A stretch of DNA of 64,000 bases from an uncultured Actinomycetes bacterium (GTDB taxonomy: Bacteria > Actinomycetota > Thermoleophilia > RBG-16-64-13). The stretch lies in contig CAVQME010000001.1 of NCBI GenBank assembly GCA_963713545.1, positions 24,540 through 88,539 of the forward strand, given 5' to 3'. The number at the start of each line of letters is the position of its first letter. The first letter of the stretch is position 1. The notes under the pieces are model-generated. The model ran no database searches and was not told the DNA's origin. It worked only from the letters and a program-made list of their open reading frames with translations. The position numbers and the translations under genes are program-made. Positions 27,356 through 42,957 of this stretch are shown piece by piece.

Positions 27356-30115
27356 TTACTCGATCGTGAAATGGGCATGGCCCGCTCCCCAGAGCCCCAA
27401 GATCACTGCGGCCGCGATCGCTACGACGGCCGCGAGAAACAGCCAGTCGGCGGCTCTCACCACCATGCGTTCCCGGTAGGTCCGGTCCGGCAAAGCGCCG
27501 AAAGCCCGGGCGTCCATGGCTATCGCCACCCGCCCCCCCTTGCGCACCGCCCCCGCCAGCAGCGGGATGGAATAGCGACGCATGCGCGACCAAACGTGCA
27601 GGAAACCTGTCCGTTCCCGCACTCCCCGGACCCGCTGCGCAGCCCGTATGGTCTGGTAGTCGCTCTGGAACGCGGGGAGCATGCGATAGCCCACCATGGT
27701 CCCGTAGGCCACCCGATAGTTCAGACGGACCTGATGCACCAGACTGAGGATGAAGCGCTGCGGCTCGGTGGTCTTCACGAACACGATGGACAGCAGCGCG
27801 AAGCAGAGCAACCGCGCCCAGAGGGTGGCGGTAGCCCACAGAGCCGGACCGGTGATCTTGATCGGACCGATGTAGAAGAGGGCTGCAGCGGTGGCGTTCT
27901 CCTTGTTGAAGAAGATGTTGGCCAGCAGGATGGCTACGCCGGCGATGACGAACACCCACAGCGGGCGGAGCAGAGCCCGCGCACTAAGACGTCCAAGAAA
28001 CCGGCCGGCTAGAAAGACGAGGGCGAAGAGCACCGCCGGCGTGATGGGATCGAAGATGAACGTGAGCGCCAACGCGACCAGGATCACGGCAAGCAGCTTG
28101 ATGCTCGGATTGCGCCGGGTCAGGTAGCTGTGAAGAGCCACGTCTTGCGCAGGTGGGCCCGCCGGCCGGCCCACCGCCGGACGGGGAGCGCTCGCTGGTT
28201 CGCCGGCCGCGCGTCCCAGCGCAGAGGACCCCAAGGCCGGGGCGCTGGTCGAGGCTACGGCGGAGACCCGCACAGGGGACGCGGCCGACGTCGCTTTTGC
28301 ACCTGTCTTCGCGGCCGAGGCATTCGCCGGGACCGCCCCAGAGATTGTTCCGGCCGCCCCGAGGAAGGCCTCGACGGTCAGAAGACCTTCAGGCGTCCCC
28401 GCCATCGTGTGCAGCCCCCTGCACACGTGCCCCAGGGCCGGGACTGACAGGCCCGCGGCCTCGACCAGTTCCGGTTGCGAGAAGAAGGCCTCCGGAGTGC
28501 CCTGGTACACGGTCCTTCCCTGGCTGAGCGCGAGAAGTGATCCCGCGTGCTCCGAGATGAGGCGCATGTCGTGACTGACCATGGCCACCGTGCCCCCCTC
28601 GGCGCGGAACTCCTGCATCATCGCCATCAGCCGGGCCGCCTGAAACTCGTCCTGGCCCAGGGTAGGCTCATCGAGGATCAGGGCCGACTGACCACGTATG
28701 AGCATTGCCGCCACACTCAGCCTCCGCTTCTGACCCTGGCTCAGAGAGAATGGATTGGCCTCCGCCAGCCGCAGCAACCCCAGGCGCTCGAGCCAGTCGT
28801 CCACCAGTGCTCGCTGCTGAGGAGTGAGGTGCGCGCTCCCCTTGCGGCCGGCTCTCGGAGAAAGGCTGAAGGCCAGCTCCCCCGCCACCGTGTCGCTGAC
28901 GAACTGGTGCTCCGGGTTCTGGAATACGTAGCCCACCTCATCGCTCAAGGCCCAGGGGGACATGCCGGCCACGTCCCTCCCATCAAGGAAGACGGCGGCC
29001 GGCGGCGGATCGAGGACCCCGGTCAGCAGGGAAGCGAGAGTGCTCTTGCCGGCCCCGTTCTCTCCCACGATGGCGAGGAGGTCGCCTCGCCGGAGAGAGA
29101 CGGAGATGTCCGTGAGGGCGGAGTGGCCGTTGGGATACCGGAAGCTCAGGTTCCTGGTCTCCAGGTGGCTTTCGCCCCGCACACTGGGGGATGGATGACT
29201 CCACCGCGCTCCCCCGTAATCTTGGGACAGGCGCAACCGCTCAACCAGGCCCTGCGTCTCGGCCAAAGCAGCCACCGTTTCTACGACGCCGAGGGGGCTT
29301 CCAGGCACGCTCCACCCCGCTTCGCGTAGTGCCGCGACCAGTTCGGCCGTCTGCGGCAGCCACACCCCCGCTTCGGAAAGGCCGGCGCTGTGCTCATAGA
29401 AGGCCGCGGCGGGATCTCCGCGAAAGAGCAGGCGTCCCCCCGGGGCCAGCACGAGCACGCTGTCCACCCACTCGATCAACTCGTCGAGCTTGTGCTCGAT
29501 TATGACGATGGAGTGCCGCCCGTCTTTCGCAAGGCGCTTCAAGAGACTGAAGAGCTCGGAGGTGGCTCGCGGGTCAAGGTTCGCAGAAGGCTCGTCCAGC
29601 ACCAGCACGCGCGGTCCCATCGCCAAGACGGCGGCCAAGGCGACTCGTTGCTTCTCACCCCCCGACAGGGTGGCAAGGCGCCGCTGTCGAAACCCCTCGA
29701 GACCGACCCAACCCAGGGCCTGGTCGACAGTGGACTCGATCTCTTCCGGAGACCGGCGCAGGTTCTCAAGACCGAAGGCGATCTCGTCCTCCACCGTGAG
29801 TGTGCAGAACTGGGCGTCGGGGTCCTGGAAGACCAGCCCGGCCTCTTGTGCCAGCAGGTGGACGGGACTCTCACCCACCACCAACCCGGCCAGCACCACC
29901 TCACCGGAGTAGTCACCTTGGACCAAGTGCGGGATCAGCCCGTCCAGGCACAGGGTCAAGGTGCTCTTGCCCGACCCGCTCGGCCCCAGCATCAGCACGG
30001 TCTCGCCCGGGGCTACCGCGAAGGAGAGATCGACCAGCGCGGGCTCCAGCCGGGTAGCGTAGGTGAAGGACAGCCCGGTGGCTGCGATGGCCGAGCGAGA
30101 GGCGGGCGTGATCAG
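27356..30115 (-). CDS. ECF-transporter energising module, triple fusion EcfA-EcfA'-EcfT (YkoD/YkoC-like); probable CTG start
   Basis: Two ABC ATPase domains: GPSGSGKST...LSGGEKQR and GENGAGKST...LSQGQKRR. An Ala/Ser/Pro linker is followed by a polytopic EcfT-like C-terminus. The track ORF starts inside the first ATPase domain. The frame stays open upstream (GKGEEDLITPASRSAIAATGLSFTY) with no ATG, GTG or TTG. CTG at 30115-30113 overlaps the upstream gene's TGA. Confidence 0.82.
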   Translation of the reverse strand: MITPASRSAIAATGLSFTYATRLEPALVDLSFAVAPGETVLMLGPSGSGKSTLTLCLDGLIPHLVQGDYSGEVVLAGLVVGESPVHLLAQEAGLVFQDPDAQFCTLTVEDEIAFGLENLRRSPEEIESTVDQALGWVGLEGFRQRRLATLSGGEKQRVALAAVLAMGPRVLVLDEPSANLDPRATSELFSLLKRLAKDGRHSIVIIEHKLDELIEWVDSVLVLAPGGRLLFRGDPAAAFYEHSAGLSEAGVWLPQTAELVAALREAGWSVPGSPLGVVETVAALAETQGLVERLRLSQDYGGARWSHPSPSVRGESHLETRNLSFRYPNGHSALTDISVSLRRGDLLAIVGENGAGKSTLASLLTGVLDPPPAAVFLDGRDVAGMSPWALSDEVGYVFQNPEHQFVSDTVAGELAFSLSPRAGRKGSAHLTPQQRALVDDWLERLGLLRLAEANPFSLSQGQKRRLSVAAMLIRGQSALILDEPTLGQDEFQAARLMAMMQEFRAEGGTVAMVSHDMRLISEHAGSLLALSQGRTVYQGTPEAFFSQPELVEAAGLSVPALGHVCRGLHTMAGTPEGLLTVEAFLGAAGTISGAVPANASAAKTGAKATSAASPVRVSAVASTSAPALGSSALGRAAGEPASAPRPAVGRPAGPPAQDVALHSYLTRRNPSIKLLAVILVALALTFIFDPITPAVLFALVFLAGRFLGRLSARALLRPLWVFVIAGVAILLANIFFNKENATAAALFYIGPIKITGPALWATATLWARLLCFALLSIVFVKTTEPQRFILSLVHQVRLNYRVAYGTMVGYRMLPAFQSDYQTIRAAQRVRGVRERTGFLHVWSRMRRYSIPLLAGAVRKGGRVAIAMDARAFGALPDRTYRERMVVRAADWLFLAAVVAIAAAVILGLWGAGHAHFTIE

Positions 30116-30693
30116 ATCCTCTTCACCTTTCCCTCAGAGATCGCGAGACCGGAAAGAACGCCGGTCCTGGCAAGAGCGTCACCGAGCAGCCGCGACACGA
30201 GCGCGCCCAGCACCACCGAGCTGATGATGGCCAGGATGGCCGCGACTCCGATGCTGCCCCACGTGTAGGTACGGTAATAGCTGTACACGAACGTGTCGAG
30301 GAGGATGCTGAAGGCTCCTGCCACCGCCCCGGCCCCCCAGAGGGCGATCCCATCGAAGCGCTTCCAGCGGAAGCCCGCGAAGACAAGCTCCGCACCCGCT
30401 CCCTGTACTAGACCGCTCGCCATGGTCAGAATGCCCCATTGGTTCCCTAGCGCCATGCTCACGAACGCGGCCACCAGCTCACCGATCAGGGCCGCGCCGG
30501 GCCGACGGATGATGTACGGTACGAGCAGCCCTCCGATCATCCATACGCCGATGAGGGCGTAGGAGAAGGGGAACGGGATCACCTGGAATACGCTCGACCA
30601 GAGCAGGCCCCATCCCCAGAAGACGACTCCGACCGCGACAGCCAGAACCGCGGCCACGACCAGTTCTCTGGTGGTCCAGTCCTTGAAGGACAC
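30112..30693 (-). CDS. ECF-transporter S component, YkoE-like (HMP/thiamine)
   Basis: 193-aa hydrophobic ORF. Context is TPP riboswitch, TPK, YkoF-like, this gene, then the fused YkoD/YkoC-like gene. Confidence 0.78.
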   Translation of the reverse strand: MSFKDWTTRELVVAAVLAVAVGVVFWGWGLLWSSVFQVIPFPFSYALIGVWMIGGLLVPYIIRRPGAALIGELVAAFVSMALGNQWGILTMASGLVQGAGAELVFAGFRWKRFDGIALWGAGAVAGAFSILLDTFVYSYYRTYTWGSIGVAAILAIISSVVLGALVSRLLGDALARTGVLSGLAISEGKVKRI

Positions 30694-31157
30694 TAGAGCT
30701 CCATCCCCGAGGGTCGGGCCGTGGCTCCTGCTGCGGCCGTGCCGCCTCCCGAGAGGTCGCGCTGGATCTCGCCGACCAGTTCGTCCGTGGGCATGCCTGC
30801 GGCCAACGTGGCCGTCATGACTGCAGGACCCCGGCGCTGCGCGGCGCGGAACGCCGCCCGCAGCGCCGCGAACACCTGGTCCTCGCTGCCCGAAAGCAGG
30901 GTACTCAGGTTTCCCACCCTCACCGAGCAGCCCTCACCGCTCGCAGCACCGATGGCCGCCTGAACGGGACCGTCGATGTCTTCCTGTAGTAGCGGGTAGA
31001 CGGAGAACTGGCAGCCTACTATCTCGGGGCTCATGTATCCCGGCCTGTCTCCCGGCTTGGCGGCCCCTGCCCCCAGCCGGTCGGCAGTAATGTCCGGCCC
31101 AGCGGCCGTCGCCCCCGGCTGATCGGACATGTCATCTCTTATGGTCGACATGGACAT
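30693..31157 (-). CDS. YkoF/MTH1187-like thiamine/HMP-binding protein
   Basis: VGCQFSVYPLLQEDIDGPVQAAI...VGNLSTLLSGSEDQVFAAL matches the ACT-like YkoF repeat pattern. It sits in a thiamine operon context. Confidence 0.65.
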   Translation of the reverse strand: MSMSTIRDDMSDQPGATAAGPDITADRLGAGAAKPGDRPGYMSPEIVGCQFSVYPLLQEDIDGPVQAAIGAASGEGCSVRVGNLSTLLSGSEDQVFAALRAAFRAAQRRGPAVMTATLAAGMPTDELVGEIQRDLSGGGTAAAGATARPSGMEL

Positions 31158-31796
31158 CTACCTCCCGTGGTAGTGGATGAGAAGAAGCACGCCCTCGCCG
31201 TGCGTCACTCGGGCTGTTTCTCCGGTCATCGCATTGCTGACCCCTCTCGTGGCCGACTGGGAGAGCGGTCCGTAGACAAGCGGATAGAGCAGACCCTCTG
31301 TCCAAACGTCCTCCACCCGCGGCGTCAGCGGCAGCAGCGAGACTGTGTCGCCGCGCTCCCCGCTGAAAGTGCTGTCACCTTTGACCAGGAAGGCCTCGTG
31401 CCAGTCGTCCACCATGCGCACACGTGCGGCTGCCAACCACGGAGACGACAGAAGCAGGAGATTCCCCACCAAGTGATCCAAGCGGGGGCCGCCCAGTGCG
31501 CCATAGACCGTGATGTCATCCGCGCCCCGCTCCATCACCAGGCGTAGCGCCGCTTCGGTGTCGGTCTCGTCTTTGGCCGTGGGGAGCAACACCACTTCCA
31601 CCCCCTGGGCCTCGAGAGCCTCGCGAGTACGGATGGTAATGGAGTCGAGGTCACCCACCAACAACCCCGGTACCAGGCCGACCCGGGCCAATGTTTCCGC
31701 TCCCCCGTCGACCGCCACAAGGAGGTCGGCCGAGGCCAGAGTGGCAGCATCCAGTTGTGCGGTCAGACTGGAACCTGCGACCACGGCGACATGCAT
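31158..31796 (-). CDS. thiN: Thiamine pyrophosphokinase
   Basis: VAVDGGA...GDLDSI...KDETDTEAAL...GALGGPRLDHLVGN are TPK catalytic and thiamine-binding domain motifs. Confidence 0.88.
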   Translation of the reverse strand: MHVAVVAGSSLTAQLDAATLASADLLVAVDGGAETLARVGLVPGLLVGDLDSITIRTREALEAQGVEVVLLPTAKDETDTEAALRLVMERGADDITVYGALGGPRLDHLVGNLLLLSSPWLAAARVRMVDDWHEAFLVKGDSTFSGERGDTVSLLPLTPRVEDVWTEGLLYPLVYGPLSQSATRGVSNAMTGETARVTHGEGVLLLIHYHGR

Positions 31797-31889
31797 GGCA
31801 GACTCCCGCGTCGGGCATCGGGGAGCGGAGCGTTCTCTAGCGGAAAGACGCCGGCGCCTCTAGAAGGCGAACGGGCTAATGTGGATAAC

Positions 31890-31978
31890 CGTTACTTCCC
31901 TTCGCTGGCATTACCCAGATCAGGTTCGCAGGGTCTGTGGCAGAGCCACACTCTCAGCTACAACGCTCCCCTAGCAAG
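31890..31978 (-). promoter_or_regulatory. TPP (THI-box) riboswitch
   Basis: The minus strand reads GGGGAGCGUUGUAGCUGAGAGUGUGGCUCUGCCACAGACCCUGCGAACCUGAUCUGGGUAAUGCCAGCGAAGGGAAG. It contains the conserved CUGAGA and ACCUGAUCUGG-UAAUGCCAGCG elements. It lies upstream of the thiN/ykoFED-like operon. Confidence 0.92.
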
Positions 31979-32471
31979 GTATATAGAATGCTCATGGATT
32001 ATAGCATCGTGGGACATGAACTGCCCCAAACGGCAACGCTGCGCGAGCGGCACTTGTGTATAATCAAGCCGTTTGTGCCGGTTGCCCGAGCACGGCGACG
32101 TCTCTTCGACGCATCCTTCCTCAGTAGGTGGTATAGACTGCCGAGAACACGAGCGTTGCGGTCAGACGGTGCGATCTCCACTCGCACCCGAGTACCTCTT
32201 CCGGCGCCGATCACAGTGAGCTCGCCCGAGCGTTTTGGGCTGAGCTGGATGGGGGGTTGGTGAACACGCAAACACTGGCCGTCGAACGGCCGGTCCCGGG
32301 GCTGAACAAGCCACCGGCGGTTTGTGCTGGTCACTTTTCCCTCCCCTGTCTTGCCGGACGTTCCACCGGCACCGTTCACGCAGAGACGCCAAGCGACGCA
32401 GGTCCGGTCAACGGGACCATCATCCAGCACACATCCGTCGAGCGGCGCCAAACGACTCCGGGGAAGGGGTG

Positions 32472-33086
32472 ATGGTGTCTACAACCACGGACGACCGCAA
32501 GGCAAGCCCTACCGAACACGGTCTCACCGAGATCCGCTGGCACGCCAGAGGCGGCCAAGGAGCGGTGACCGCAGCCAAGATGGTGGCCGAACTGGCCCTC
32601 GGCCAGGGCAAGCACTTCCAGGCCTTCCCCGAGTACGGGCCCGAGCGCTCGGGAGCCCCCATCGTCGCCTTCACGCGGGTGAGCGACGAGCCCATCCAGC
32701 TCTACTGCGGTGTCGAGCATCCGGGCATCGTGGTGGTGCTCGATCCGTCGTTGCTCGGCACGATAGACGTCACCAAGGGCGCCCCTGACGACGCGATCCT
32801 GCTTGTCAACAGCGAGATGACGCCGGCCGAGCTGCGGAGGCACTACAAGCTCACGGGCGGGCGTCTCTTCACCATCGAGGCCACCCGGATAGCCAACGAG
32901 ACGATCCGCCGGCCCATCCCGAACACGCCCATGGTCGGCGCTCTCACCCGGATAACCGGACTCTTTCCGATCGACAAGGTGGTCGAATTCCTGCGCGTTG
33001 ATTTCGGCAAGAAGTTCCCTCCCAAGGTGGTGGAGGGCAATATCTCCGCCATCACGCGAGCCTACGAGGAGGTCAAGGGCGAATGA
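32472..33086 (+). CDS. porG: 2-oxoacid (pyruvate):ferredoxin oxidoreductase, gamma subunit
   Basis: ATG at 32472 follows GGGGAAGGGG. EIRWHARGGQGAVTAAKMVAELA...FPEYGPERSGAPIVAFTR is the typical PorG pattern. Confidence 0.92.
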   Translation: MVSTTTDDRKASPTEHGLTEIRWHARGGQGAVTAAKMVAELALGQGKHFQAFPEYGPERSGAPIVAFTRVSDEPIQLYCGVEHPGIVVVLDPSLLGTIDVTKGAPDDAILLVNSEMTPAELRRHYKLTGGRLFTIEATRIANETIRRPIPNTPMVGALTRITGLFPIDKVVEFLRVDFGKKFPPKVVEGNISAITRAYEEVKGE

Positions 33087-33406
33087 GCCCCGCGAAGAAG
33101 CCCCAGTGGGATGTCAGCGACATCGACACTTGGGGGCCCGACAAGCACGAGCTCGGAGCGACCATCCCCGTGTCGGGGAACTCCGAGGAGGTCGAGACCG
33201 GCGGCTGGCGCTCGATGGTGCCGGTCATAGATTCCGAGGCCTGCAGCGGCTGCATGCTCTGCTACTTCTACTGCCCCGACGCCTCGATCATTATCGAGGA
33301 CGGTAAAGCAGTGGGTATCGACCTCAAGCACTGCAAGGGTTGTGGCATCTGCGCCAAGGAATGCCCGGCCGACGCGATAGTCATGAAGAACGACGAGAAG
33401 GAGTGA
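33083..33406 (+). CDS. porD: 2-oxoacid:ferredoxin oxidoreductase, delta subunit (2x[4Fe-4S])
   Basis: CSGCMLCYFYCP and CKGCGICAKECP motifs. ATGA overlap with porG. Confidence 0.92.
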   Translation: MSPAKKPQWDVSDIDTWGPDKHELGATIPVSGNSEEVETGGWRSMVPVIDSEACSGCMLCYFYCPDASIIIEDGKAVGIDLKHCKGCGICAKECPADAIVMKNDEKE

Positions 33407-33410
33407 CGAG

Positions 33411-34613
33411 GTGGGCGGAGACAGCACCGGCACGCTCGCCGTCACCGGCAACGAAGCGGTAGCGGAAGCGATGCGCCAGATCAACCCGGACGTGGTGTGC
33501 GCCTATCCCATCACTCCCCAGACCGAGGTCGTGCAGCTCTACGCGCAGATGGTGGCCGACGGTAAGGTGACCTCCGAGTTCGTCACGGTGGAGTCGGAGC
33601 ATTCGGCCATGAGCGCCGTGATCGGCTCCGAAGCCGCCGGCGCACGGACGATGACGGCCACCTCCTCGCAGGGCTTCGCCCTGATGTGGGAGCTCCTCTT
33701 CGTGGCCTCGAGCTACCGGCTGCCGATCGTGATGACCACGGTAAACCGTGCGCTCAGCGGGCCCATCAATATCCACTGCGACCACAGCGACACCATGGGG
33801 GGCCGGGACTCGGGCTGGATCCAGCTCTACGGCGAGGACCACCAGCAGGCCTACGACAATTGCATCCAGGCCATCCGTATTGCCGAGCATATGGACGTGC
33901 GCACGCCGGCGATGCACATGTACGACGGCTACGTCATCAGTGGCGCTATCGGCCCCCTGGTGATGTTGCCGGACGAGCAGGTCCAGGACTTCATCGGCCC
34001 GTTCCGATCTGTCAACCCACTCCTTGACGCCAAGCACCCCGTCACCGTAGGTCCTTTCGACGGTTTGCACGGCTGGTACTTCGAGCACAAGGTCTCGCAG
34101 AATCGAGCGATGGACCGAGCTCTGAAGGTGATCCAAGACGTCGCAGACGAGTACGCGGAGTTGAGCGGACGGCACTACAGCCTCCTCGATCCCTACCGCC
34201 TGGAAGACGCCGAGATAGCCATAGTCGTTGTCGGCTCCACGGCCGGGACCACACGCATGATCGTGGACAAGCTCCGCGCCAAGGGCGTCCGGGCCGGGAT
34301 GATACGGGTGCGCGTGTTCCGTCCGTTCCCGGACGCGGCCTACGCAAAGGCCCTCGAGCACGTGAAAGTGGTCGGCGTCATGGATCGGGCCGATTCCTTC
34401 GGCGCTCAGGGAGGCCCACTGTTTCTCGAGATCCGCGCGGCCTTGTACGACAACGAACCGCGTCCCCAGGTGCTGCCGTTCATCTACGGCCTCGGCGGGC
34501 GCGATATCTTCCCCGACAACATCGAGCACGCCTTCTCCGTCCTGGAGGAGGCGGCCCATAGCAGGCAGCGAGCGTCCACCGAGCGCCGCTATCTGAACCT
34601 GCGCGAAGACTGA
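33411..34613 (+). CDS. porA: 2-oxoacid:ferredoxin oxidoreductase, alpha subunit
   Basis: 400-aa ORF. TGNEAVAEAMRQINPDVVCAYPITPQTEVV is the PorA N-terminus. GTG start follows AAGGAG. Confidence 0.95.
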   Translation: MGGDSTGTLAVTGNEAVAEAMRQINPDVVCAYPITPQTEVVQLYAQMVADGKVTSEFVTVESEHSAMSAVIGSEAAGARTMTATSSQGFALMWELLFVASSYRLPIVMTTVNRALSGPINIHCDHSDTMGGRDSGWIQLYGEDHQQAYDNCIQAIRIAEHMDVRTPAMHMYDGYVISGAIGPLVMLPDEQVQDFIGPFRSVNPLLDAKHPVTVGPFDGLHGWYFEHKVSQNRAMDRALKVIQDVADEYAELSGRHYSLLDPYRLEDAEIAIVVVGSTAGTTRMIVDKLRAKGVRAGMIRVRVFRPFPDAAYAKALEHVKVVGVMDRADSFGAQGGPLFLEIRAALYDNEPRPQVLPFIYGLGGRDIFPDNIEHAFSVLEEAAHSRQRASTERRYLNLRED

Positions 34614-34623
34614 GGGAGCCGGC

Positions 34624-35436
34624 ATGGCACGCGACAACGGTCACAAAGATAAGGGATCGGCGCTGTACGAGGTCCTGCAAGGGATCGACTTCGAGCGCCG
34701 GCAATTGGTCGGCAAGAAAGCGGGCACCGGTCTCTTCGACCTGGCCCGGGATGAGAATGGCGGCTACCGCTGCTACGCCTGCACGCTCTGCGAACGGACC
34801 TGCCCGGTGGACTGCATCGAACTCGAATACTGCCCTGATTTCCCGGAAGAGCCGTTCGATCTCGAAGCCGCGCGAGCCGCGGCCCTGACCACCCTTCCCG
34901 GGGAGAGTTGCGGCGCGGCTTCGGCCTGCGTCATGGGCGAGACACCGGCCGGTTTCATACCCGAGATCGACATGAAGCACTTCGATCCGGTGATCGCCGG
35001 CATCCGCTCGGGATCGGGACTGGTGGAAGCCCTGCACGCCACCCAGGAAGCCTACGGCTATCTGCCCCGTGTGGCCCTCGAAGCCATCGCGGACGAGATG
35101 CACCTGCCCTTCTCGCGGGTCTACGGCGTCGCCAGCTTCTACAGCCAGTTCCGGCTCCGACCGGTGGGCAAGTACGTCATCGACGTCTGTATGGGCACCG
35201 CCTGCCACGTGGCCGGCGCCCCGCTGGTGGCGGAGGCGTTCAGCCAGGAGCTCGAGATCCCTCTGGGGGGGACTACTCCCGACGGTCTCTTCACCCTGCA
35301 GACGGTGAACTGCGTCGGTGCCTGTGCCCTCGCCCCGGTGGTGCGCATCGGGAACGACGAGACGTTCGGCCGTATGGGACCCAATGAGGCCAGGCGATTG
35401 GTACGCAGGTTGCGTAAAGCGGAGGTGCGGGCATGA
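34624..35436 (+). CDS. NuoE/HydC-type [2Fe-2S] subunit with N-terminal ferredoxin-like extension
   Basis: The C-terminal two thirds form the NuoE fold: LHATQEAYGYLP...DVCMGTACHVAG...NCVGACALAPVV. The ~110-aa N-terminal extension carries CYACTLCERTCP plus further Cys residues. Confidence 0.9.
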   Translation: MARDNGHKDKGSALYEVLQGIDFERRQLVGKKAGTGLFDLARDENGGYRCYACTLCERTCPVDCIELEYCPDFPEEPFDLEAARAAALTTLPGESCGAASACVMGETPAGFIPEIDMKHFDPVIAGIRSGSGLVEALHATQEAYGYLPRVALEAIADEMHLPFSRVYGVASFYSQFRLRPVGKYVIDVCMGTACHVAGAPLVAEAFSQELEIPLGGTTPDGLFTLQTVNCVGACALAPVVRIGNDETFGRMGPNEARRLVRRLRKAEVRA

Positions 35437-37421
35437 GCGCCGGTGGGACCGTGCGCGCCGGCGGCGCCTCGAACGGCGCCGGCCGCAAGGCCGCCCGCGC
35501 AGCGGCTGCGGCGGTGCAGGCCCGGGCCGATAGGATCGACGCGGCGCTGAAGGCCGCCGCCGATCCGAACGCCTACCTGGCCGAGGACGGCAACACGGAG
35601 ATAAGGGTCTGCGCCGGTACCGCCTGCCATGCTTCCGGCCGGGTGGCCCTGCGCAAGGCACTCGAGAAGGCGTTGGCCGAGCGCGGCCTCGGCGACAAGG
35701 TGACCATCGTCGAGACCGGCTGCCATGGGTTCTGCGAGCAGGGCCCCATCATCGTGCTTCGGCCACAGGGCATCTTCTACCCCCGTCTGGAGCCGAAAGA
35801 CGTGGAGGAGCTCATCGAGACGAGCGTGGTGGGAGACGGAGTGGTGGAACGGCTTCTCTACCAGCACCCGCGGTCGGGCGAACCCCTCGCGCTCGAGAAG
35901 GACATCCCGTTCTACTCTTTGCAGAGGCGTATCGTGCTGAGCCTCAACGGCAAGATCGACCCTTTCTCCCTGGACGACTACCTTGCCCATGGCGGCTACT
36001 CGGCGCTCGCCAAGGTGCTCAAACCCGCCGACCCGGTGGCGATCATCGACGAGATCGAGAGGAGCGGCCTGCGCGGCCGCGGGGGGGCCGGATTCCCGAC
36101 GGCTCGCAAATGGCGGAGCTGCCGCGCCAACCCCGGCGAGAAGCACTACATCATCTGCAACGCCGATGAGGGAGACCCCGGCGCCTTCATGGACCGCTCG
36201 GTGCTCGAAGGCAACCCTCACAGCGTGATAGAGGGAATGCTCATAGCCGCCTACGCGATCGGGTGCGACAACGGCCCGGTGGAAGGCTACGTGTACGTCC
36301 GTCACGAGTACCCCTTCGCTGTGGAGCGGCTTCGTTGGGCGCTGGAGCAGGCCCGTAACAGGAACCTACTCGGTGAGGACATCCTGGGTTCAGGCTTCTC
36401 CTTCGACATACGGATAAACCAGGGGGCGGGCGCTTTCGTCTGCGGCGAGTCCACGGCCCTCACCGCTTCCATCGAGGGGTTGCGGGGGATGCCGAGAGGT
36501 AAGCATATCCGCACCGTGTCCCACGGCCTCTGGAGCCAGCCTACCAACCTCAACAACGTCGAGACCTACGCCAACGTGCCCTGGATCATGATTCACGGCG
36601 CCGACGCGTTCGCTTCGCTGGGCACCGACACCAGCAAAGGAACCAAGATCTTCTCGCTCACGGGCAAGGTCGTCAACGGCGGTCTCATAGAGGTGCCGAT
36701 GGGCGCCACCTTGCGCGAGGTGATCTTCGATATCGGGGGCGGGATGCTGCCCGGCCGTCACTTCAAGGCCGTGCAACTGGGTGGACCGTCGGGGGGCTGT
36801 TTGCCCGCGTCTCTTCTCGACGAGCCCATCGATTTCGAGAGTCTGCTCGCGGCCGGCTCCATGATGGGTTCCGGCGGCATGGTGGTGGTCGACGACAGCA
36901 CGTGCATGGTCGACTTCGCCAAGTTCTTCCTGAAGTTCACGGCCGAGGAGAGCTGCGGGAAATGCGTGCCCTGCCGCGTCGGCGCCACCCGCATGCTCGA
37001 GATCCTGGAGCGCATCTCGGCCGGCCGCGCGACAGCGGCCGACGTGGATGCGCTCGAAATGTTGGCCGAGGACGTCGTGGAAGGCTCGCTCTGCGCCCTG
37101 GGCGGGAGCGCACCCAACCCGGTGCTGTCCACGCTCCGTTACTTCAGGGACGAGGTGATGGCCCACGCCGAGGAGCACCGTTGCCCGGCTAGGGTCTGCC
37201 GTCCTCTCATCCGCTACAAGATCGACAAAGACGCCTGCACCGGCTGCCGCGCCTGCCTCACCGCCTGCCCTACCGGCGCGGTGACCGGGGAGCGGAAAGA
37301 GGTCCACGTCATCGACCAAAAGCTCTGCATCAAGTGCGATGCCTGCCGGCAGGCGTGCCGGTTCGACGCGGTCCGCGTGGAGGCGGGCGCGCGTTCGCTG
37401 GCCGAAGGGAGGGTAAGGTGA
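35433..37421 (+). CDS. NuoF/HydB-type FMN- and NAD(H)-binding subunit with flanking FeS domains
   Basis: N-terminal thioredoxin-like [2Fe-2S] (RVCAGTACHASG...GCHGFCEQGP). NuoF core (GLRGRGGAGFPTARKW, CNADEGDPGAFMDR). ESCGKCVPCRVG cluster. C-terminal CTGCRACLTACP and CIKCDACRQAC. ATGA overlap with the upstream gene. Confidence 0.93.
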   Translation: MSAGGTVRAGGASNGAGRKAARAAAAAVQARADRIDAALKAAADPNAYLAEDGNTEIRVCAGTACHASGRVALRKALEKALAERGLGDKVTIVETGCHGFCEQGPIIVLRPQGIFYPRLEPKDVEELIETSVVGDGVVERLLYQHPRSGEPLALEKDIPFYSLQRRIVLSLNGKIDPFSLDDYLAHGGYSALAKVLKPADPVAIIDEIERSGLRGRGGAGFPTARKWRSCRANPGEKHYIICNADEGDPGAFMDRSVLEGNPHSVIEGMLIAAYAIGCDNGPVEGYVYVRHEYPFAVERLRWALEQARNRNLLGEDILGSGFSFDIRINQGAGAFVCGESTALTASIEGLRGMPRGKHIRTVSHGLWSQPTNLNNVETYANVPWIMIHGADAFASLGTDTSKGTKIFSLTGKVVNGGLIEVPMGATLREVIFDIGGGMLPGRHFKAVQLGGPSGGCLPASLLDEPIDFESLLAAGSMMGSGGMVVVDDSTCMVDFAKFFLKFTAEESCGKCVPCRVGATRMLEILERISAGRATAADVDALEMLAEDVVEGSLCALGGSAPNPVLSTLRYFRDEVMAHAEEHRCPARVCRPLIRYKIDKDACTGCRACLTACPTGAVTGERKEVHVIDQKLCIKCDACRQACRFDAVRVEAGARSLAEGRVR

Positions 37422-40400
37422 GCACACGAACCAAGACCGCCCTGAAGCTCACGATCGACGGTAGGGTGGTGAAAGCGCAGCAGGGCGAGACCGTTCTGGA
37501 CGTCGCCCGCCGGGAAGGCATCGACATACCGGCGCTGTGCCACATACCCGGCACCCCGGCCTGGGGCGCTTGTCGGCTGTGCCTGGTTGAAGTGGAGGGA
37601 CTCGACAAGCTCCAGGCCGCCTGCACCACCTGGGTGGAAGAAGACATGGTGGTGAAGACCGACACCCCGCGGGTGCGGGCGAGGCGGACGAGCTACCTCA
37701 AGATGTACCTCTCAGATCACAATGCCTATTGCGAGGCGCCCTGCACGCACGCCTGTCCCACCCACATCGACATTCCGGCGTATCTGGCTGCCCTGGCCGC
37801 CGGCGACGCCCCGGGAGCGGCCGCTCTGGTGCGCGAAGAACTTCCGTTCCCCGGCATCCTGGGACGGGTCTGCCCGCGCTATTGCGAGCCGGTCTGCAGA
37901 CGAGGCCAGATCGACGAACCGATCGCCATCTGCGCCCTTCATCGAGCCGCCGCCGACCATTCGCCGGGCGCGCGCCTCGCGTCGGGTGCGACCAGCGGCA
38001 AGCGGGTGGCCGTCATAGGCGCCGGTCCAGCCGGTCTCGCCGCCGCTTGGTTCCTCGTCGATCGCGGACATCGGGTCACCCTGTACGACATGAACGAGAA
38101 GCCCGGAGGAGCCCTCCGGTACACTATCCCCGAATTCCGCTTGCCGGAGAAGGTGCTCGACAAGGAGCTACAGCCCTTGTGGGATGCGGGCGTGCGCTTT
38201 GTGGGCGGGTCGAAGCTCGGCTATGAGGTCGATCCCGATGGATTGTTCGATGCCGGGTTCGACGCGGTCGTCATAAGCGTGGGCGGCATGGAGAGGCCCG
38301 CGCCCACCCTCCCCGGCGGCGAAGCCGCCCTCGATGGCCTCGAGCTGCTAAGAAGAGTCCGCGAAGGCCACCCCGTGCGCTTCACCGGCCAGACGGTGGT
38401 CGTAGGTGACGGGCCCACGGCTTTCGACGCCGCCCGCACCTCGTTGCGGCTAGGCGCCGCGGAGGTGGTGGTCATCGCCAAGCACGAAGAGAACGCCATC
38501 CCCGCCGGGAGACAGGATCTGGCCGCCGCTCTGGAAGAGGGCGTCAGGATCGAGTTCGGCGCGTCGGCCAAGCGCGTGAAGACAGCCGCCGGGAAGGTGA
38601 AGGGCGTCTCTTGCGCCCGTCTCGCTTGGGACGGGGATACGGCCCGGGAGATCGAAGATTCCGACTTCGAGGTGGCGGGAGCCACAGTGGTGCTGGCGGA
38701 TGACGAAGCACCGCCGGCCTCCGCCAAGGGGCGTCTGCAGGCCCATCCCTTCACCGGACGGACGTCTCGCGAGGGTGTCTTCGCAGCCGGCGACGCGGTC
38801 GCCGGGGCGGAGTCGGTGATCCACGCCGTGGCCGGCGGCAAACGCGCCGCCTTGGCCGTCGACGCCTGGTTACGCGGACACGACTTGGCGGCCCTGGAGG
38901 AACGACTGGAGGCGTTCAGCCGCTCGCCCTATCTGGACCAGCTCGAGGAGGCCTCCGAGATCGGCGACGTCGGCCGGCGCTTGACCGAAAGAAGCCCGGT
39001 CTGGCTCAAGATGGGCGCCACCGCGGAACCCGCGGCCCGCGCCTCCATGCCCAGGGCCGGCAAGGCCAAGCGCTTGTCCGGTGTGGAGGTGGAAGTCGAG
39101 AAGGGCTTCAGCCTTGCCACCGCTCGGGCCGAGGCCAAGCGCTGCCTGCAGTGCGTGTGTCCCACCCTTGGCGAATGCGATCTGCAACGGTTGGGAGTGC
39201 AGTACGAGATCACTGCCAACGAACTGGTCACCGAGGGCGGCAGGGTGCGGGTGGTCCAGCCCCAGCACGAGCATCCCTTCATCCGGCGCGACATGGACCG
39301 TTGCGTCGCTTGCGGGCGTTGCGTGCGGGTGTGCCGCGACGTGGCCGGTCCCGCCTGCTACGACTTCACCGGCCGAGGCTTCGCCATCAACGTCGACACC
39401 CCCTATGCCGAAGCCCTGCAGCTGGCCGACTGCATCTCCTGCGGTCGTTGCGTGTCCACCTGTCCTACCGGGGCACTCACCTTCAACGAGCGCCGGCTGA
39501 GTTCCTTCCGGGTCGACGAGAGCCGCTGCATCATGTGCCGGGAGTGCGTGGAGGTCTGCCCGGTGGATGCCATACAGGAGACCAACCACTTCGAGGACGC
39601 CCGCCGCAAGTGGCTCGAACTGGTGGCCAAGGGCAGCCAGCTTGCCGGCGGGCACCGCATGTGCGCCGGATGTGGCGCGCCCATCGTCGTCAGACAGGTC
39701 CTCATGGGCACCAGCGATCCGGTGGTGGTCAGCGCGGCCACGGGCTGTCTCGAGGTGAGTACCTCGATCTACCCGTACACTTCTTGGAAGGGTAGTTTCA
39801 TCCACACCGCTTTCGAGAACTCCGCGGCTACCCTGAGCGGGGTCGAGACCGCTTTCAAAGCGCTCAAGAAGAAGGGACTCATCGACGAGAACGTCAAGTT
39901 CATCGCCTTCGGCGGCGACGGCGGCACCTACGACATCGGGCTGCAGTCGCTCTCCGGCGCAATGGAACGCGGGCACCGGATGCTGTATGTCTGCTACGAC
40001 AACGGCGCCTACATGAACACCGGCTTCCAGCGCTCCGGGGCAACCCCGACATGTGCCTGGACGACCACCAGCCCGGTTGGCGAGGAGTCGGCCGGCAAGT
40101 TGCAGCAACGCAAGAACCTCACCGAGATAATGATCGCTCACGGTCTCGAGTATGTGGCCCAGGCCTCACCGCACGATCCGCGGGACTTGGTGCGCAAAGC
40201 GGCGAAGGCGCTGGCAGTAGACGGTCCCACCTTCCTCAACATCCTCGCTCCTTGCCCACGCGGGTGGCGCTCGGATGGGGCCGAGAGCATCGACCTGGCT
40301 CGGGAGGCCGTCAACACCTGCTACTGGCCGCTGTTCGAGTGCGTGGAAGGAGAGTACCGGCTCACCTACCGGCCCCACTACAAGCTGCCGCTCGTACCCT

Positions 40401-40576
40401 GGCTCAAGCGCCAGGGCCGCTTCGCTCACCTGTTCCAACCGGCCAACGAGTGGGCTCTTCGTCATCTCGAGGACTGGGTGGACGAGGAGTGGGAGAAGCT
40501 ATTGCGCAAGTGCCAAGAGCCTAGCGAGGCCGAATGGCAGGCGCATCTGCAGGCCAACGGTTGTCTCCTGCGCTGA
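37418..40576 (+). CDS. Multidomain fusion: NuoG-type [2Fe-2S], GltD/NfnB-like FAD-NAD(P)H oxidoreductase, NuoG-type [4Fe-4S] modules, extra ferredoxin motif, PorB (TPP-binding beta subunit of OFOR)
   Basis: GTG at 37418 overlaps the nuoF-like stop (GTGA). Domains by nucleotide position:
- 37439-37669: C-x10-C-x2-C-x13-C.
- 37697-38878: CEAPCTHACP, CPRYCEPVC, VAVIGAGPAGL, VVVGDGPTAFD, GVFAAGDA.
- 39131-39493: CLQCVCPTLGECDLQ, CVACGRCVRVC, CISCGRCVSTCP.
- 39506-39583: CIMCRECVEVCP.
- 39626-40513: HRMCAGCGAPI...GGDGGTYDIG...CYDNGAYMNTG...APCPRGW, the PorB pattern. Confidence 0.9.
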   Translation: MSTRTKTALKLTIDGRVVKAQQGETVLDVARREGIDIPALCHIPGTPAWGACRLCLVEVEGLDKLQAACTTWVEEDMVVKTDTPRVRARRTSYLKMYLSDHNAYCEAPCTHACPTHIDIPAYLAALAAGDAPGAAALVREELPFPGILGRVCPRYCEPVCRRGQIDEPIAICALHRAAADHSPGARLASGATSGKRVAVIGAGPAGLAAAWFLVDRGHRVTLYDMNEKPGGALRYTIPEFRLPEKVLDKELQPLWDAGVRFVGGSKLGYEVDPDGLFDAGFDAVVISVGGMERPAPTLPGGEAALDGLELLRRVREGHPVRFTGQTVVVGDGPTAFDAARTSLRLGAAEVVVIAKHEENAIPAGRQDLAAALEEGVRIEFGASAKRVKTAAGKVKGVSCARLAWDGDTAREIEDSDFEVAGATVVLADDEAPPASAKGRLQAHPFTGRTSREGVFAAGDAVAGAESVIHAVAGGKRAALAVDAWLRGHDLAALEERLEAFSRSPYLDQLEEASEIGDVGRRLTERSPVWLKMGATAEPAARASMPRAGKAKRLSGVEVEVEKGFSLATARAEAKRCLQCVCPTLGECDLQRLGVQYEITANELVTEGGRVRVVQPQHEHPFIRRDMDRCVACGRCVRVCRDVAGPACYDFTGRGFAINVDTPYAEALQLADCISCGRCVSTCPTGALTFNERRLSSFRVDESRCIMCRECVEVCPVDAIQETNHFEDARRKWLELVAKGSQLAGGHRMCAGCGAPIVVRQVLMGTSDPVVVSAATGCLEVSTSIYPYTSWKGSFIHTAFENSAATLSGVETAFKALKKKGLIDENVKFIAFGGDGGTYDIGLQSLSGAMERGHRMLYVCYDNGAYMNTGFQRSGATPTCAWTTTSPVGEESAGKLQQRKNLTEIMIAHGLEYVAQASPHDPRDLVRKAAKALAVDGPTFLNILAPCPRGWRSDGAESIDLAREAVNTCYWPLFECVEGEYRLTYRPHYKLPLVPWLKRQGRFAHLFQPANEWALRHLEDWVDEEWEKLLRKCQEPSEAEWQAHLQANGCLLR

Positions 40577-40633
40577 TCCGGGGCCGCGGGGCAGGAGCAC
40601 TGCGGTCTGGCGCCCACAAGGGCGAGACGAGAG

Positions 40634-40671
40634 ATGAAGAAGGGCGAGTCCGAGGACTCGCCCTTCTTCAT
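40634..40671. terminator. Bidirectional hairpin terminator between convergent genes
   Basis: ATGAAGAAGGGCGAGTC-CGAG-GACTCGCCCTTCTTCAT gives a 17-bp perfect stem. It lies between the stop at 40576 (+) and the stop at 40702 (-). Confidence 0.6.
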
Positions 40672-40701
40672 CCGGCGTACCGGAACACGCTCTTGCCAGG
40701 C

Positions 40702-42957
40702 TTAAGCCGGTGGTCTGAGCGGCCTGTTGCGCGGAGCCTCGAGCCGGATGCGGGGCAGGACCCGCCGCAGCGCCCGCGGTAGGTACCAGCTGATCTTGCC
40801 CAGGAGAGCCATGCTGGCCGGTACCAGTATCGAGCGTATGAGGGTGGCGTCGAGAAGCACCGCGACCGCCAGGCCGAACCCCACTTGCTGCAGCATCACC
40901 AGGTTGCCGGCGGCGAAGGTGGAGAAGACCACCACCATGATCAGGGCGGCCCCGGTGATGATGCGGCTCGTGGCCTTGAGACCGACCGCCACCGCTTCTT
41001 TGCTCTTGTCGGTGCGGTCGTAGTGTTCCTGGATGCGGCTGAGTAGGAACACGTGATAGTCCATGCTCAGACCGAAGAGGATGCAGAACAGGAAGATGGG
41101 CACCCACGACTCGATAGTGGGTGTTTGCTGGAATCCGAAGAGCTGATGGCCGATCCCTTTCTGGAACACGAGCACGAGCATCCCGTAGGCCGCTCCCACG
41201 GATAGCAGGTTCATGAAGATAGCGGTGAGTGGCACCACGATCGATCTGAAGACCACCATCAGCAAGATGAACGTCAGCCCCAGGACGAACGCCAGTACCG
41301 CCGGCGTCAGCTTGTTCACGAGGTTGACGGAGTCATGCTCGAGCGCGGTCTGCCCCGTCACGTATACCGTCGCGCTCTGGGCGGCGAAAGCCGCGGGGAT
41401 CAGGTCGCTCCGCAGGTCGTCGACCGCCGCGTATGCAGCCTCCGAATCGGTCTCGACGGCGAGGGGTGCGGTTATGAGCGCCACGTCCTCGTTCTGGTTC
41501 CAGGTCACTGTGCCCGCTGTGGCGAAGTCGTCCGAAGCGCTCATGCTTTGACGCAAGGTTTCGATCGCTCCGTCTACCGCAGCCGTCCGGTCGGCGTCCA
41601 CCACTATCTCGACGGGGGCCAACACCCCCGCTGGGAAGTTGTCCACGAGCAACTCATAAGCATCCCGTCGCTCCCCGGGGGGAAGTGTCCCCGCCCCACC
41701 GGACGCCCCGGTCTTGAGCATGAACGCGGGCGAGGTGATGGCCAGCAGTATGACCACCGTGAGCACCACTCCTACGATCGGCCTGGCCATGATGCCCTTG
41801 GTGAACTTGCCCCAGAAGCCCTTGTACACGGTGAGGTGGCTGTGTACGCGCTCGCCGTCGTGCTTCTTCCTGTGCCAGCGGACCAGAGGCCAGTTGACCC
41901 GGTCCCCCAGGAGACTGAGCAGGGCCGGGACCAGGGTGAGCATCGCCAGGATGGCGACCCCCACAACGAGCAGCGCTCCCGCTCCAAGACTGCGGAAGGT
42001 AGTTATGGGGATAATGAAGAGCCCGCACAAGGCGAGCATGACCGTGCCTCCAGAGAAGAGCACGGCACGGCTGGCTGAGGCTCCGGTGGCCGTGATGGCC
42101 TCCAGCTTGCTCAGACCCTGGCGGCGCTCCTCCCGAAAACGCTCGATGATGAAGAGGGCGTAGTCGATGCCCACGGCGAGCCCGATCATCATGATCACGT
42201 TGACGATGAAGAACGACTGAGGGAGGAAGAGCCCCACCACGGCTATCACCCCCATGCTGACGAAGATGCTGATCAAAGCCAGGGCCATGGAGACGCCGGC
42301 GGCCATCAGGGCCCCGAACACGAACACCAGGACGAGCAGTGTGATGGGCAGGCCTATCAGTTCGGCTTTCATCAGGTCTTTCTCGGCAGTAGCGGTGAAC
42401 TCATGCCCGATGCTGGCCCCGCCCACAGTCGCCACCGCGAAGTCCTCGGAGTTCTGGGCGCGCACCGTTGCCAGATACGCTTCCATGGTGTCGCCGTTGT
42501 CGGCGGCTCCCCCGGCGAACGAGATGGGTATCAGGGTGGTGTGCCGGTCGGCCGACACCATCGACTGCGCCGCGTCCGGAGCGAGAAGAGTTGCCTGGTA
42601 GTACGTGTACGCCTGAGAGACGACCCCACTCTCCGCGAGGAGGGCGGCCTGGACCTCTTCGACTCTCCGCTGGAACGCGGGGTCGTCCACGGTGGCCGCG
42701 TCGGAGTGCACGAGCACGGTCTCGCTGAAGTCGGCGGTCCCGGTCATCTCCTGCGAGAGCAAGGTCTCACCTTTGACCGAATCCGGGTTGTTCAGGAACT
42801 TCATCTCGTCGCCGGTGAGCGCGCTCTTGAGACCGGGCGACGCGACGATCGCCAGTACAAGGAAGAGCACCCAAACACCGACAACCCACCACGGGTGACG
42901 GGCGCTAGAACCGGCCAGTCTCTCGGTGGAAAGGAACTTCAAAGAAGGGAACTTCAC
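40702..42957 (-). CDS. MMPL-family (RND superfamily) membrane transporter
   Basis: 751-aa ORF with two blocks of TM helices separated by soluble loops, a typical MMPL profile. The motif DYALFIIERFREE is present. Confidence 0.92.
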   Translation of the reverse strand: MKFPSLKFLSTERLAGSSARHPWWVVGVWVLFLVLAIVASPGLKSALTGDEMKFLNNPDSVKGETLLSQEMTGTADFSETVLVHSDAATVDDPAFQRRVEEVQAALLAESGVVSQAYTYYQATLLAPDAAQSMVSADRHTTLIPISFAGGAADNGDTMEAYLATVRAQNSEDFAVATVGGASIGHEFTATAEKDLMKAELIGLPITLLVLVFVFGALMAAGVSMALALISIFVSMGVIAVVGLFLPQSFFIVNVIMMIGLAVGIDYALFIIERFREERRQGLSKLEAITATGASASRAVLFSGGTVMLALCGLFIIPITTFRSLGAGALLVVGVAILAMLTLVPALLSLLGDRVNWPLVRWHRKKHDGERVHSHLTVYKGFWGKFTKGIMARPIVGVVLTVVILLAITSPAFMLKTGASGGAGTLPPGERRDAYELLVDNFPAGVLAPVEIVVDADRTAAVDGAIETLRQSMSASDDFATAGTVTWNQNEDVALITAPLAVETDSEAAYAAVDDLRSDLIPAAFAAQSATVYVTGQTALEHDSVNLVNKLTPAVLAFVLGLTFILLMVVFRSIVVPLTAIFMNLLSVGAAYGMLVLVFQKGIGHQLFGFQQTPTIESWVPIFLFCILFGLSMDYHVFLLSRIQEHYDRTDKSKEAVAVGLKATSRIITGAALIMVVVFSTFAAGNLVMLQQVGFGLAVAVLLDATLIRSILVPASMALLGKISWYLPRALRRVLPRIRLEAPRNRPLRPPA

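Follow-up and report, generated by a model that had tools for sequence, protein, structure and literature searches.

A 64-kb stretch of DNA from an uncultured Thermoleophilia bacterium (contig CAVQME010000001.1; the whole stretch is called the window below) carries, at positions 32472-40576, six genes in which a 2-oxoacid:ferredoxin oxidoreductase (OFOR) is joined by gene fusion to a Bfu-type electron-transfer module. The encoded order is PorG, PorD, PorA, BfuC (NuoE-like), BfuB (NuoF-like) and a 1052-amino-acid (aa) protein, BfuA::PorB, that ends in the thiamine pyrophosphate (TPP)-binding beta subunit of the oxidoreductase (Table 1). With PorB attached to the C-terminal end of BfuA, the oxidoreductase (POR) would be physically wired to BfuA-BfuB-BfuC, and we put the chances at about even that the six genes encode one hard-wired enzyme of the Bfu (HydABC-type) family, 'Por-Bfu'. 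Enzymes of this kind have been predicted from gene clusters of Dehalococcoides and syntrophic Proteobacteria and are uncharacterised (Schut et al. 2022, Front Microbiol 13:946711, PMC9304861). The window enzyme is a variant of that prediction, distinguished by the covalent BfuA::PorB fusion, an NfnA-type BfuA, NuoI-like additions and its host phylum, as neither the main text nor the supplement of Schut et al. 2022 contains an entry from Actinomycetota/Actinobacteria.

The fusion, the conserved gene order and the lack of internal promoter- or terminator-like sites argue that the six genes form one operon and almost certainly encode one complex, in agreement with an earlier note on this DNA that had treated them as a single wired unit. 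That note's account of tightly packed, co-directional genes matches the coordinates and junctions exactly. All six open reading frames lie on the + strand, with an ATGA overlap between porG and porD (33083-33086), a 4-nt gap between porD and porA (TGA CGAG GTG), a 10-nt gap between porA and bfuC, a second ATGA overlap between bfuC and bfuB (35433-35436) and a GTGA overlap between bfuB and the fusion gene (37418-37421), and a GGAGG-like, purine-rich ribosome-binding site precedes each of the six starts. A sigma-70 consensus scan of 31700-41000 returned no promoter-like site, and a consensus scan found no + strand terminator-like site inside the operon. The possibility that the nuoE/nuoF-like genes belong to a separate operon with its own promoter was checked in this way, and no such internal site was seen.

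The gene order and the PorB fusion recur in other genomes, as the earlier note had proposed to establish: they were found in 68 complete loci, and a scan of one genome per species gave 135 matching genomes. Among 85 fetched loci the six-gene order is kept in 68, the remaining 17 are cut by contig ends and none shows another order; because all 68 informative loci share one gene order, the arrangement is not due to chance. Clustered at 90%, the full-length relatives of the fusion protein number more than 100, but a single full-length representative is left for the whole family when the threshold is 50%; the family is therefore abundant but phylogenetically narrow. The best 80 of the 135 matching genomes are all Actinomycetota metagenome-assembled genomes (MAGs), mostly labelled Thermoleophilia or Gaiellales. 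All genomes among the matches listed are MAGs, and the record titles of the samples behind these MAGs point to soils or sediments, bogs and anaerobic reactors. The closest loci among the matches listed (L003 and L077) are 90-96% identical per protein. One MAG contig (CAVZIK010000006.1, 3.56 Mb) contains two full copies of the operon (L028 and L031), about 2.5 Mb apart, whose fusion proteins are 70-71% identical to that of the window.

Annotation with Pfam and NCBIfam profile hidden Markov models confirms every domain named in the earlier note. On the oxidoreductase side, the alpha, gamma and delta subunits of a four-subunit OFOR are present, the delta subunit with its eight-cysteine dicluster, and the beta subunit is present as a fused domain. 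PorG exceeds the cut-off of the PorC_KorC model TIGR02175 (188.9 bits against 81.1) and PorD that of the PorD_KorD model TIGR02179 (95.7 bits against 60.05); the PorD cysteines 54, 57, 60, 64, 84, 87, 90 and 94 are kept in 100% of 63 homologues. Within the fusion protein, the NCBIfam model PRK11865 PorB spans residues 737-1029 (347 bits), Pfam TPP_enzyme_C lies at residues 775-942, and the best solved relative of this part is the pyruvate:ferredoxin oxidoreductase (PFOR) beta structure 9bt4_C (262 bits). Both the TPP motif (G833-D834-G835...N862) and the [4Fe-4S] ligands (C749, C752, C777 and C946) are invariant in alignments of 15 and of 74 sequences. No second porB-like sequence occurs in the 64-kb window. 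Thus the claim that the operon has no free-standing porB, its place being taken by the C-terminus of the 1052-aa protein, is upheld, and the contrary case of a dead fused domain with a free porB elsewhere in the window finds no support. The operon products share with PorABDG enzymes (e.g. 9bt4) the alpha, gamma, delta and beta modules and all their cofactor motifs, but differ in that the beta subunit is not free-standing and is linked to a flavin mononucleotide (FMN)/NAD(H) module.

The Bfu family is defined by its BfuBC core, and the extra B2-B5 sites are missing from the characterised non-bifurcating homologues of this core (Schut et al. 2022, PMC9304861). In the window the family's features are all found: the extra sites of BfuB, a thioredoxin-like [2Fe-2S] domain in BfuC, and an N-terminal [2Fe-2S] domain with NuoG-like [4Fe-4S] motifs in BfuA. 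BfuB (Pfam 2Fe-2S_thioredx at the N-terminus, Fer4 motifs at the C-terminus, and a weak SLBB match of E 8e-5 and 22.8 bits, under the 27-bit cut-off) consists of an N-terminal [2Fe-2S] domain, an FMN/NAD(H) domain, an N3-type [4Fe-4S] cluster, a Cys/His site and a C-terminal pair of [4Fe-4S] clusters. The ligands of these sites (C60/65/97/101, C508/511/514/554 and C491/H578/C584/C589, and in the C-terminal clusters C602-612 and C632-642) are 98-100% conserved in the window and 57 homologues. Its top solved relatives are all B subunits of bifurcating hydrogenases or Nfn enzymes (7t2r_B, 8a6t_B, 7q4v_B, 9bov_B, 9n5u_B and 8oh5_B), and complex I NuoF scores about half as high against BfuB as these do. 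With ligands conserved and the nearest structures bifurcating, a NuoF-like subunit with extra bifurcation-type sites at both ends, as first described, is well founded. The earlier proposal that electrons are transferred without free ferredoxin is overstated, as the C-terminal domain of BfuB, which in NfnABC is the ferredoxin-reducing end (B3-B4), is fully conserved; because of this conservation, and by analogy with NfnABC, ferredoxin is probably still a substrate of the enzyme at these clusters.

In BfuC, the thioredoxin-like [2Fe-2S] domain (residues 131-263) has fully conserved C1 ligands C189, C194 and C234, with C230 at 98%. It is preceded by an N-terminal extension (residues 1-125) that best matches the first half of NuoI models and contains a NuoI-like CxxCxxCxxxCP motif and four further conserved cysteines; conservation is 100% for C50/53/56/60, 94-95% for C64/70 and 85% for C96/102.

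The 1052-aa fusion protein gives the Pfam series Fer2_4, Fer4_20, Pyr_redox_2, Fer4_Nqo3, Fer4 motifs and TPP_enzyme_C, with PRK12814 (NCBIfam) covering residues 8-642. Its BfuA part thus contains a [2Fe-2S] domain, a GltD/NfnL-like insert at about residues 100-490 (Fer4_20 and a flavin adenine dinucleotide (FAD)/NAD(P)H fold), NuoG/HydA-like [4Fe-4S] motifs and an extra NuoI-like CxxCxxCxxxCP motif at residues 704-714, residues 669-745 matching NuoI best. The BfuA cysteine ligands, including the seven of the Fer4_20 clusters, are invariant in the same 15- and 74-sequence alignments. Residues 9-689 align with NfnA/StnC (9bov_A at 439 bits, 8oh5_C and 9n5u_A), the A-type subunits of the NfnABC/StnABC enzymes of Caldicellulosiruptor saccharolyticus (Csac; 9bov), Sporomusa ovata (8oh5) and Thermococcus sibiricus (Tsib; 9n5u). 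In these enzymes, as in the window, an NfnL-like FAD domain is inserted into the His-cluster motif and followed by [4Fe-4S] motifs, and BfuB and BfuC are close to NfnB and NfnC. The window protein differs from about residue 736 onward, where PorB replaces the C-terminal Fdh/NuoG-like lobe, a vestigial formate-dehydrogenase-like domain in true NfnA, and its operon includes POR subunits. In Csac NfnA the electron path runs FAD-A7-A6-A3-A2-A1 to B1-FMN-C1 and on to B3-B4, with a dead-end branch, A2-A4-A5, leading into the Fdh-like lobe (PMC11829005). Since that lobe is replaced by PorB, the formerly dead-end branch would now lead to a live catalytic domain.

In the proposed Por-Bfu enzyme the catalytic unit would be a four-subunit-type 2-oxoacid oxidoreductase made up of PorG, PorD, PorA and the PorB domain. 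Electrons from the TPP site would pass to the PorB cluster, then by way of the PorD clusters and the extra NuoI-like clusters to the Fe-S chain of BfuA, and from there to the FMN/[4Fe-4S]/[2Fe-2S] site of BfuB-BfuC, at which they would be split between NAD+ (at FMN) and ferredoxin (Fd; at the C-terminal clusters of BfuB). The overall reaction, reversible in principle, would be 2 pyruvate + 2 CoA (coenzyme A) + NAD+ + 2 Fd(ox) = 2 acetyl-CoA + 2 CO2 + NADH + 2 Fd(red). By analogy with characterised Bfu enzymes, including Wor-Bfu, which acts on a low-potential substrate (Schut et al.), we expect NAD+ and ferredoxin reduction to be obligatorily coupled to oxidation of the 2-oxoacid.

The flavin insert of BfuA had been described in the earlier note as a GltD-like NAD(P)H module, and the two parts of this description fare differently. 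The domain itself is present, aligned with that of the NADPH-oxidising NfnA/StnC, and in the window its FAD GxGxxG (GAGPAG), GxGxxA (GDGPTA) and GD motifs are intact; FAD binding is probably retained. As an NAD(P)H site it departs from its relatives. The window reads GDGPTAFD...AKH, versus GGGNTAMD...YRR in NfnA, NfnI-L and DPD-type proteins. Across 109 family members the YRR 2'-phosphate motif is found in none (one has ARR), the third glycine of the dinucleotide motif is lost in about 20 and the GD motif in about 15. Conservation is lowest in the NAD(P)H subdomain (identity 0.42, versus 0.66-0.85 for the other domains), whose length ranges from 101 to 151 residues, a spread of 50 residues. 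The Lys170 ligand of the A7 cluster in Csac NfnA aligns with His175, and a new invariant cysteine, Cys172, lies nearby; in Sporomusa NfnABC, replacement of the A7 lysine by arginine or cysteine lowers bifurcating activity by about 50% and about 100%, respectively. The NfnA proteins of Csac, Sporomusa and Tsib and NfnI-L all have YRR, and the more distant NfnA-like proteins P0129 and P0132 keep the GGG, YRR and lysine features, whereas P0125, a complex I-associated relative discussed below, shares the deviations of the window (GDG, no YRR, and Cys..His in place of Lys).

In two loci (L086 and L087; ENA contigs ERZ25039549 and ERZ25039461) the DNA no longer encodes the NAD(P)H subdomain (roughly residues 290-441 of the window protein), while the rest of the operon is kept. 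Both loci also carry several frameshifts in porG and bfuB, probably sequencing errors, so the deletion is weighted modestly, and they represent either decaying copies or long-read sequencing errors. The proteins P0115 and P0116, which come from contigs with many frameshifts, were used solely for this DNA-level loss, and P0117, P0119 and P0120 were rejected as natural short forms because they are frameshifted gene calls.

Because the NADPH signature is lost, the insert is less likely to serve as a main substrate site than as a vestigial or auxiliary one, and a working NADP(H) site in it is doubtful. On the Por-Bfu reading it is inherited from an NfnA-like or a complex I-associated ('Nuo-Bfu') ancestor. 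We consider it unlikely that the GltD/NfnL-like FAD domain is instead a working NAD(P)H site on the Fe-S chain of POR. The enzyme would then oxidise pyruvate with NAD(P)+ as acceptor or, run backwards, act as a pyruvate synthase in which the low-potential electrons for reductively carboxylating acetyl-CoA come from NAD(P)H bifurcation at the BfuBC core. The seven invariant Fer4_20 cysteines, the intact window motifs and a confidently predicted fold are in favor of this reading, but they are set against the absence of YRR throughout the family, the losses of the third glycine and of GD, the weak conservation, variable length and occasional deletion of the NAD(P)H subdomain, and the histidine at the A7 position.

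Comparison with more distant relatives bears on the same question. A protein of 492 aa from a metagenomic contig (P0131) is a minimal BfuA::PorB without the flavin insert, and the order PorG-PorD-PorA-BfuC-BfuB-BfuA::PorB is seen on its contig and in two Promethearchaeota (Asgard) MAG loci (L092 and L093), read as far as the contigs reach, with all six genes present in both MAG loci. The minimal-form proteins are about 50% identical to those of the window, and their BfuC is short. Because Promethearchaeota share it at this level of identity, the fused Por-Bfu layout occurs in very distant lineages. Relative to the minimal form, the window protein has two insertions, one at about residues 100-626 that comprises the His-cluster region and the NfnL-like module, and one at about residues 697-737 that contains the extra CxxCxxCxxxCP motif. 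Since the minimal Promethearchaeota form is without the flavin insert, the core function does not need it, which is a further point against a working NAD(P)H site there. In both L092 (3711-9473 and 12419-15660) and L093 (320-6110 and 6426-7858) a canonical porGDAB-type cluster stands directly beside the minimal Por-Bfu operon, cut by the contig end in L093. A PorB with an N-terminal ferredoxin-like domain (P0127) was set aside, as its 4.4-kb contig has no informative neighbours.

Among non-fused proteins, the BfuA part has its closest relative in P0125 (816 aa, 45% identity), which occupies the position of NuoG in a complex I operon of the order nuoA-B-C-D-H-[E-F-G']-J-K-L-M-N with no separate nuoI. 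This Nuo-linked or Nuo-Bfu cluster, found on two metagenome contigs (L089, 2466-13432, and L090), encodes the closest non-fused Bfu module (BfuB 71%, BfuC 50% and BfuA part 44-45% identical to the window's) and has both the extra CxxCxxCxxxCP after the NuoG-like motifs and the N-terminal extension of BfuC. It differs in lying between nuoH and nuoJ with no POR, whereas the window module ends in PorB. NuoI is the best match both for the C-terminal dicluster region of its NuoG-like protein and, over the first half of NuoI, for the N-terminal extension of its NuoE-like protein; by sequence, it looks as if nuoEFG had been inserted into nuoI in L089 and L090. The Bfu module of the window has both NuoI-like pieces (Table 1). 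Both extra motifs occur in the window family and also in the Nuo-linked cluster, and neither is found in the archaeal minimal form. Because they co-occur and are co-absent, this pattern suggests that the two motifs may build one NuoI-like dicluster domain shared by BfuC and BfuA.

These affinities to complex I also speak for a non-bifurcating pyruvate:NAD+ oxidoreductase, in which BfuCBA would be a complex I N-module run in reverse that conducts POR electrons to FMN and NAD+. Such an enzyme would replace pyruvate dehydrogenase in a ferredoxin-independent manner, with a logic like that of NAD+-dependent phenylglyoxylate dehydrogenase. Electron transfer from pyruvate to NAD+ is strongly exergonic and requires no coupling, a relative with 45% identity (71% in BfuB) stands in the place of NuoG, and the BfuC extension and BfuA carry NuoI-like motifs. 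Nevertheless BfuB retains, at 98-100% conservation, all the sites that are absent from characterised non-bifurcating homologues (Schut et al.), and PorD, the usual exit to ferredoxin, is retained as well; we hold this reading, too, to be improbable.

Phenylglyoxylate dehydrogenase itself (PadEFGHI) is a functional analogy alone, consisting of an OFOR core with a pyridine-nucleotide-reducing flavoprotein, and its equivalog models all score under half their cut-offs (PadE 132/300, PadF 71/150, PadG 308/700 and PadI 226/700). Of the features of NfnABC, the window has the FAD insert and is without the NADPH signature, the A7 lysine and the Fdh-like lobe. Because three of these four features are missing and all Pad scores fall short, the enzyme was filed neither as NfnABC nor as Pad. 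The pyruvate:NADP+ oxidoreductase of Euglena and Cryptosporidium, an OFOR core linked to a P450-reductase-type domain, is likewise analogous in function alone, and Pfam found no P450-reductase-type domain in the operon products.

Several considerations weigh against Por-Bfu as proposed here. Por-Bfu enzymes are predicted, and none is characterised biochemically. Pyruvate (E0' about -500 mV) is a strong enough reductant for both NAD+ and ferredoxin without coupling, a point also made by Schut et al. (PMC9304861), and the benefit of bifurcation is therefore unclear. In an AlphaFold2 model of the fusion protein (74-sequence alignment) the Fe-S linker between BfuA and PorB, residues 611-751, has a predicted local distance difference test (pLDDT) score below 50, which bears on the continuity of the wire. 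The flavin domain in the same model is confident (pLDDT mostly 83-96), and this predicted fold together with the intact FAD, GxGxxA and GD motifs of the window leaves some probability to a working nicotinamide site. Lastly, the substrate is not certain because all pyruvate-specific Por equivalog models (NCBIfam) score under their curated cut-offs: PorA 474/550 (PorA_Arch, the top model for this subunit), PorB 347/405, PorC 195/270 and PorD 94/120. Only the pyruvate/2-ketoisovalerate subfamily models TIGR02175 and TIGR02179 exceed theirs.

The same shortfall would fit an enzyme of identical architecture acting on another 2-oxoacid, such as 2-oxoisovalerate, 2-oxobutyrate or an aromatic 2-oxoacid. 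We rate this as quite unlikely, as the pyruvate enzyme is the top-scoring model each time and, among solved structures, the PorB part comes closest to a PFOR beta subunit; the substrate is probably pyruvate, to judge from these sequence matches.

Less probable still is a redox hub of four sites, in which 2-oxoacid/acyl-CoA + CO2, NAD(H), ferredoxin and a second nicotinamide at FAD would all be served by one enzyme. Were this so, nicotinamide-driven bifurcation at the BfuBC core would feed low-potential electrons directly to the fused POR, and uncultured Thermoleophilia could fix CO2 into pyruvate from acetyl-CoA without a pool of reduced ferredoxin; in the forward direction, the hub could yield unusually low-potential ferredoxin from pyruvate. 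Two unrelated operons that merely adjoin, a POR and a NuoEF-type module, are a general concern that Schut et al. voice for Bfu gene clusters, but we give this almost no credence here and reject it on the gene fusion and the invariant synteny, since bfuC and bfuB sit between porA and porB, porB exists only fused to bfuA with invariant motifs, start codons overlap stop codons, and the scans found no promoter-like site in 31700-41000 and no + strand terminator-like site within the operon, with one conserved -10 element lying upstream of porG.

In relation to the Por-Bfu clusters of Schut et al., the window shares the presence of por and bfuABC genes in one cluster, a BfuB of the bifurcating type and pyruvate as the proposed third substrate. 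In those clusters the subunits are separate and number seven, with PorB free and BfuA of the small type 2, whereas the window has six genes, the PorB-BfuA fusion, a large NfnA-like BfuA with a flavin insert, a NuoI-like motif and an Fe-S extension of BfuC. The novelty claimed in the earlier note therefore stands in part: no biochemically characterised enzyme of this composition was found in the literature searched, but the Por-Bfu concept had already been proposed (PMC9304861), and the only later mention in that literature amounts to one sentence in PMC12318220. No description of a covalent BfuA::PorB fusion, of the GltD/NfnL-like flavin insert or of the extra NuoI-like motifs was found in that literature.

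Upstream of porG, the element TGTATAAT is a candidate extended -10 sequence and the putative promoter of the por-bfu operon. The consensus scanner did not find a full sigma-70 site at this element, which was seen through alignment alone. It lies about 400 nt from the porG start, and the intervening leader, in which no Rfam family was matched, aligns in the closest relatives L003 and L001 and is absent in L023 and L037, whose spacer is much shorter. Downstream, a perfect 18-bp GC-rich hairpin lies between the stop codon of the operon and a convergent MMPL/TetR gene pair; it is probably a bidirectional terminator, with no T-run on the + strand.

Upstream of the por-bfu operon, and divergent from it, lies a thiamine operon whose products are thiamine pyrophosphokinase, YkoF, an ABC_cobalt/YkoE-like permease and a YkoD/YkoC-like fusion of ATPase and permease. 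A TPP riboswitch stands upstream of these genes and is itself preceded, at a distance of about 16 nt, by a conserved TATAAT. Roughly 30 of the fetched loci have the kinase-YkoF pair beside the por-bfu operon, with L002, L008 and L030 showing it on the other flank, and this recurrence suggests a cofactor-supply link between the thiamine genes and a TPP enzyme. The other flanks of the window (protein kinase, Lon, RtcB, MMPL/TetR, GNAT, glycerate-kinase-like and other genes) are housekeeping or unrelated and give no hint of physiological direction.

Table 1. Positions in the window of the por-bfu genes, their parts and adjacent elements
Feature	Position	Strand	Basis
Thiamine operon	27356-31796	-	
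TPP riboswitch	31880-31982	-	Rfam RF00059, 70.6 bits
TATAAT	31998-32003	-	conserved
Candidate extended -10 promoter TGTATAAT	32057-32064	+	invariant across the window and four related intergenic regions (alignment)
Leader	32065-32471		
porG/porC, gamma subunit of 2-oxoacid:ferredoxin oxidoreductase, 204 aa	32472-33086	+	Pfam POR 8e-40
porD, delta subunit, 2x[4Fe-4S], 107 aa	33083-33406	+	two Fer4 motifs (Pfam)
porA, alpha subunit, 400 aa	33411-34613	+	POR_N 5e-68, PFOR_II 4e-30
bfuC, NuoE/HydC-like, 270 aa	34624-35436	+	2Fe-2S_thioredx 1e-43
N-terminal extension of bfuC, first NuoI-like piece	34624-34998	+	
bfuB, NuoF/HydB-like, 662 aa	35433-37421	+	Complex1_51K 1e-42, NADH_4Fe-4S 7e-32
bfuA::porB fusion gene, 1052 aa	37418-40576	+	
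bfuA part of fusion, residues 1-735	37418-39622	+	aligns with NfnA/StnC structures
Second NuoI-like piece	39425-39650	+	
porB part of fusion, residues 736-1052, TPP-binding beta subunit	39623-40576	+	PRK11865 PorB, [4Fe-4S] ligands
Perfect 18-bp GC-rich hairpin	40633-40672		-40.7 kcal/mol, z = -6.75 versus shuffles

The question raised by Schut et al. 2022, whether the catalytic genes found beside bfuABC form one enzyme with it, is answered genetically for the pyruvate case by the fusion, and an operon of six genes makes a tractable target for the first purification and cryo-electron microscopy of a Por-Bfu enzyme. The family also offers a case of module exchange, in which a dead-end Fe-S branch of the NfnA type gains a live catalytic domain while the original NADPH site decays. 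If pyruvate oxidation is obligatorily split between NADH and ferredoxin in these organisms, or run in reverse, models of carbon and electron flow in Thermoleophilia and Gaiellales would change.

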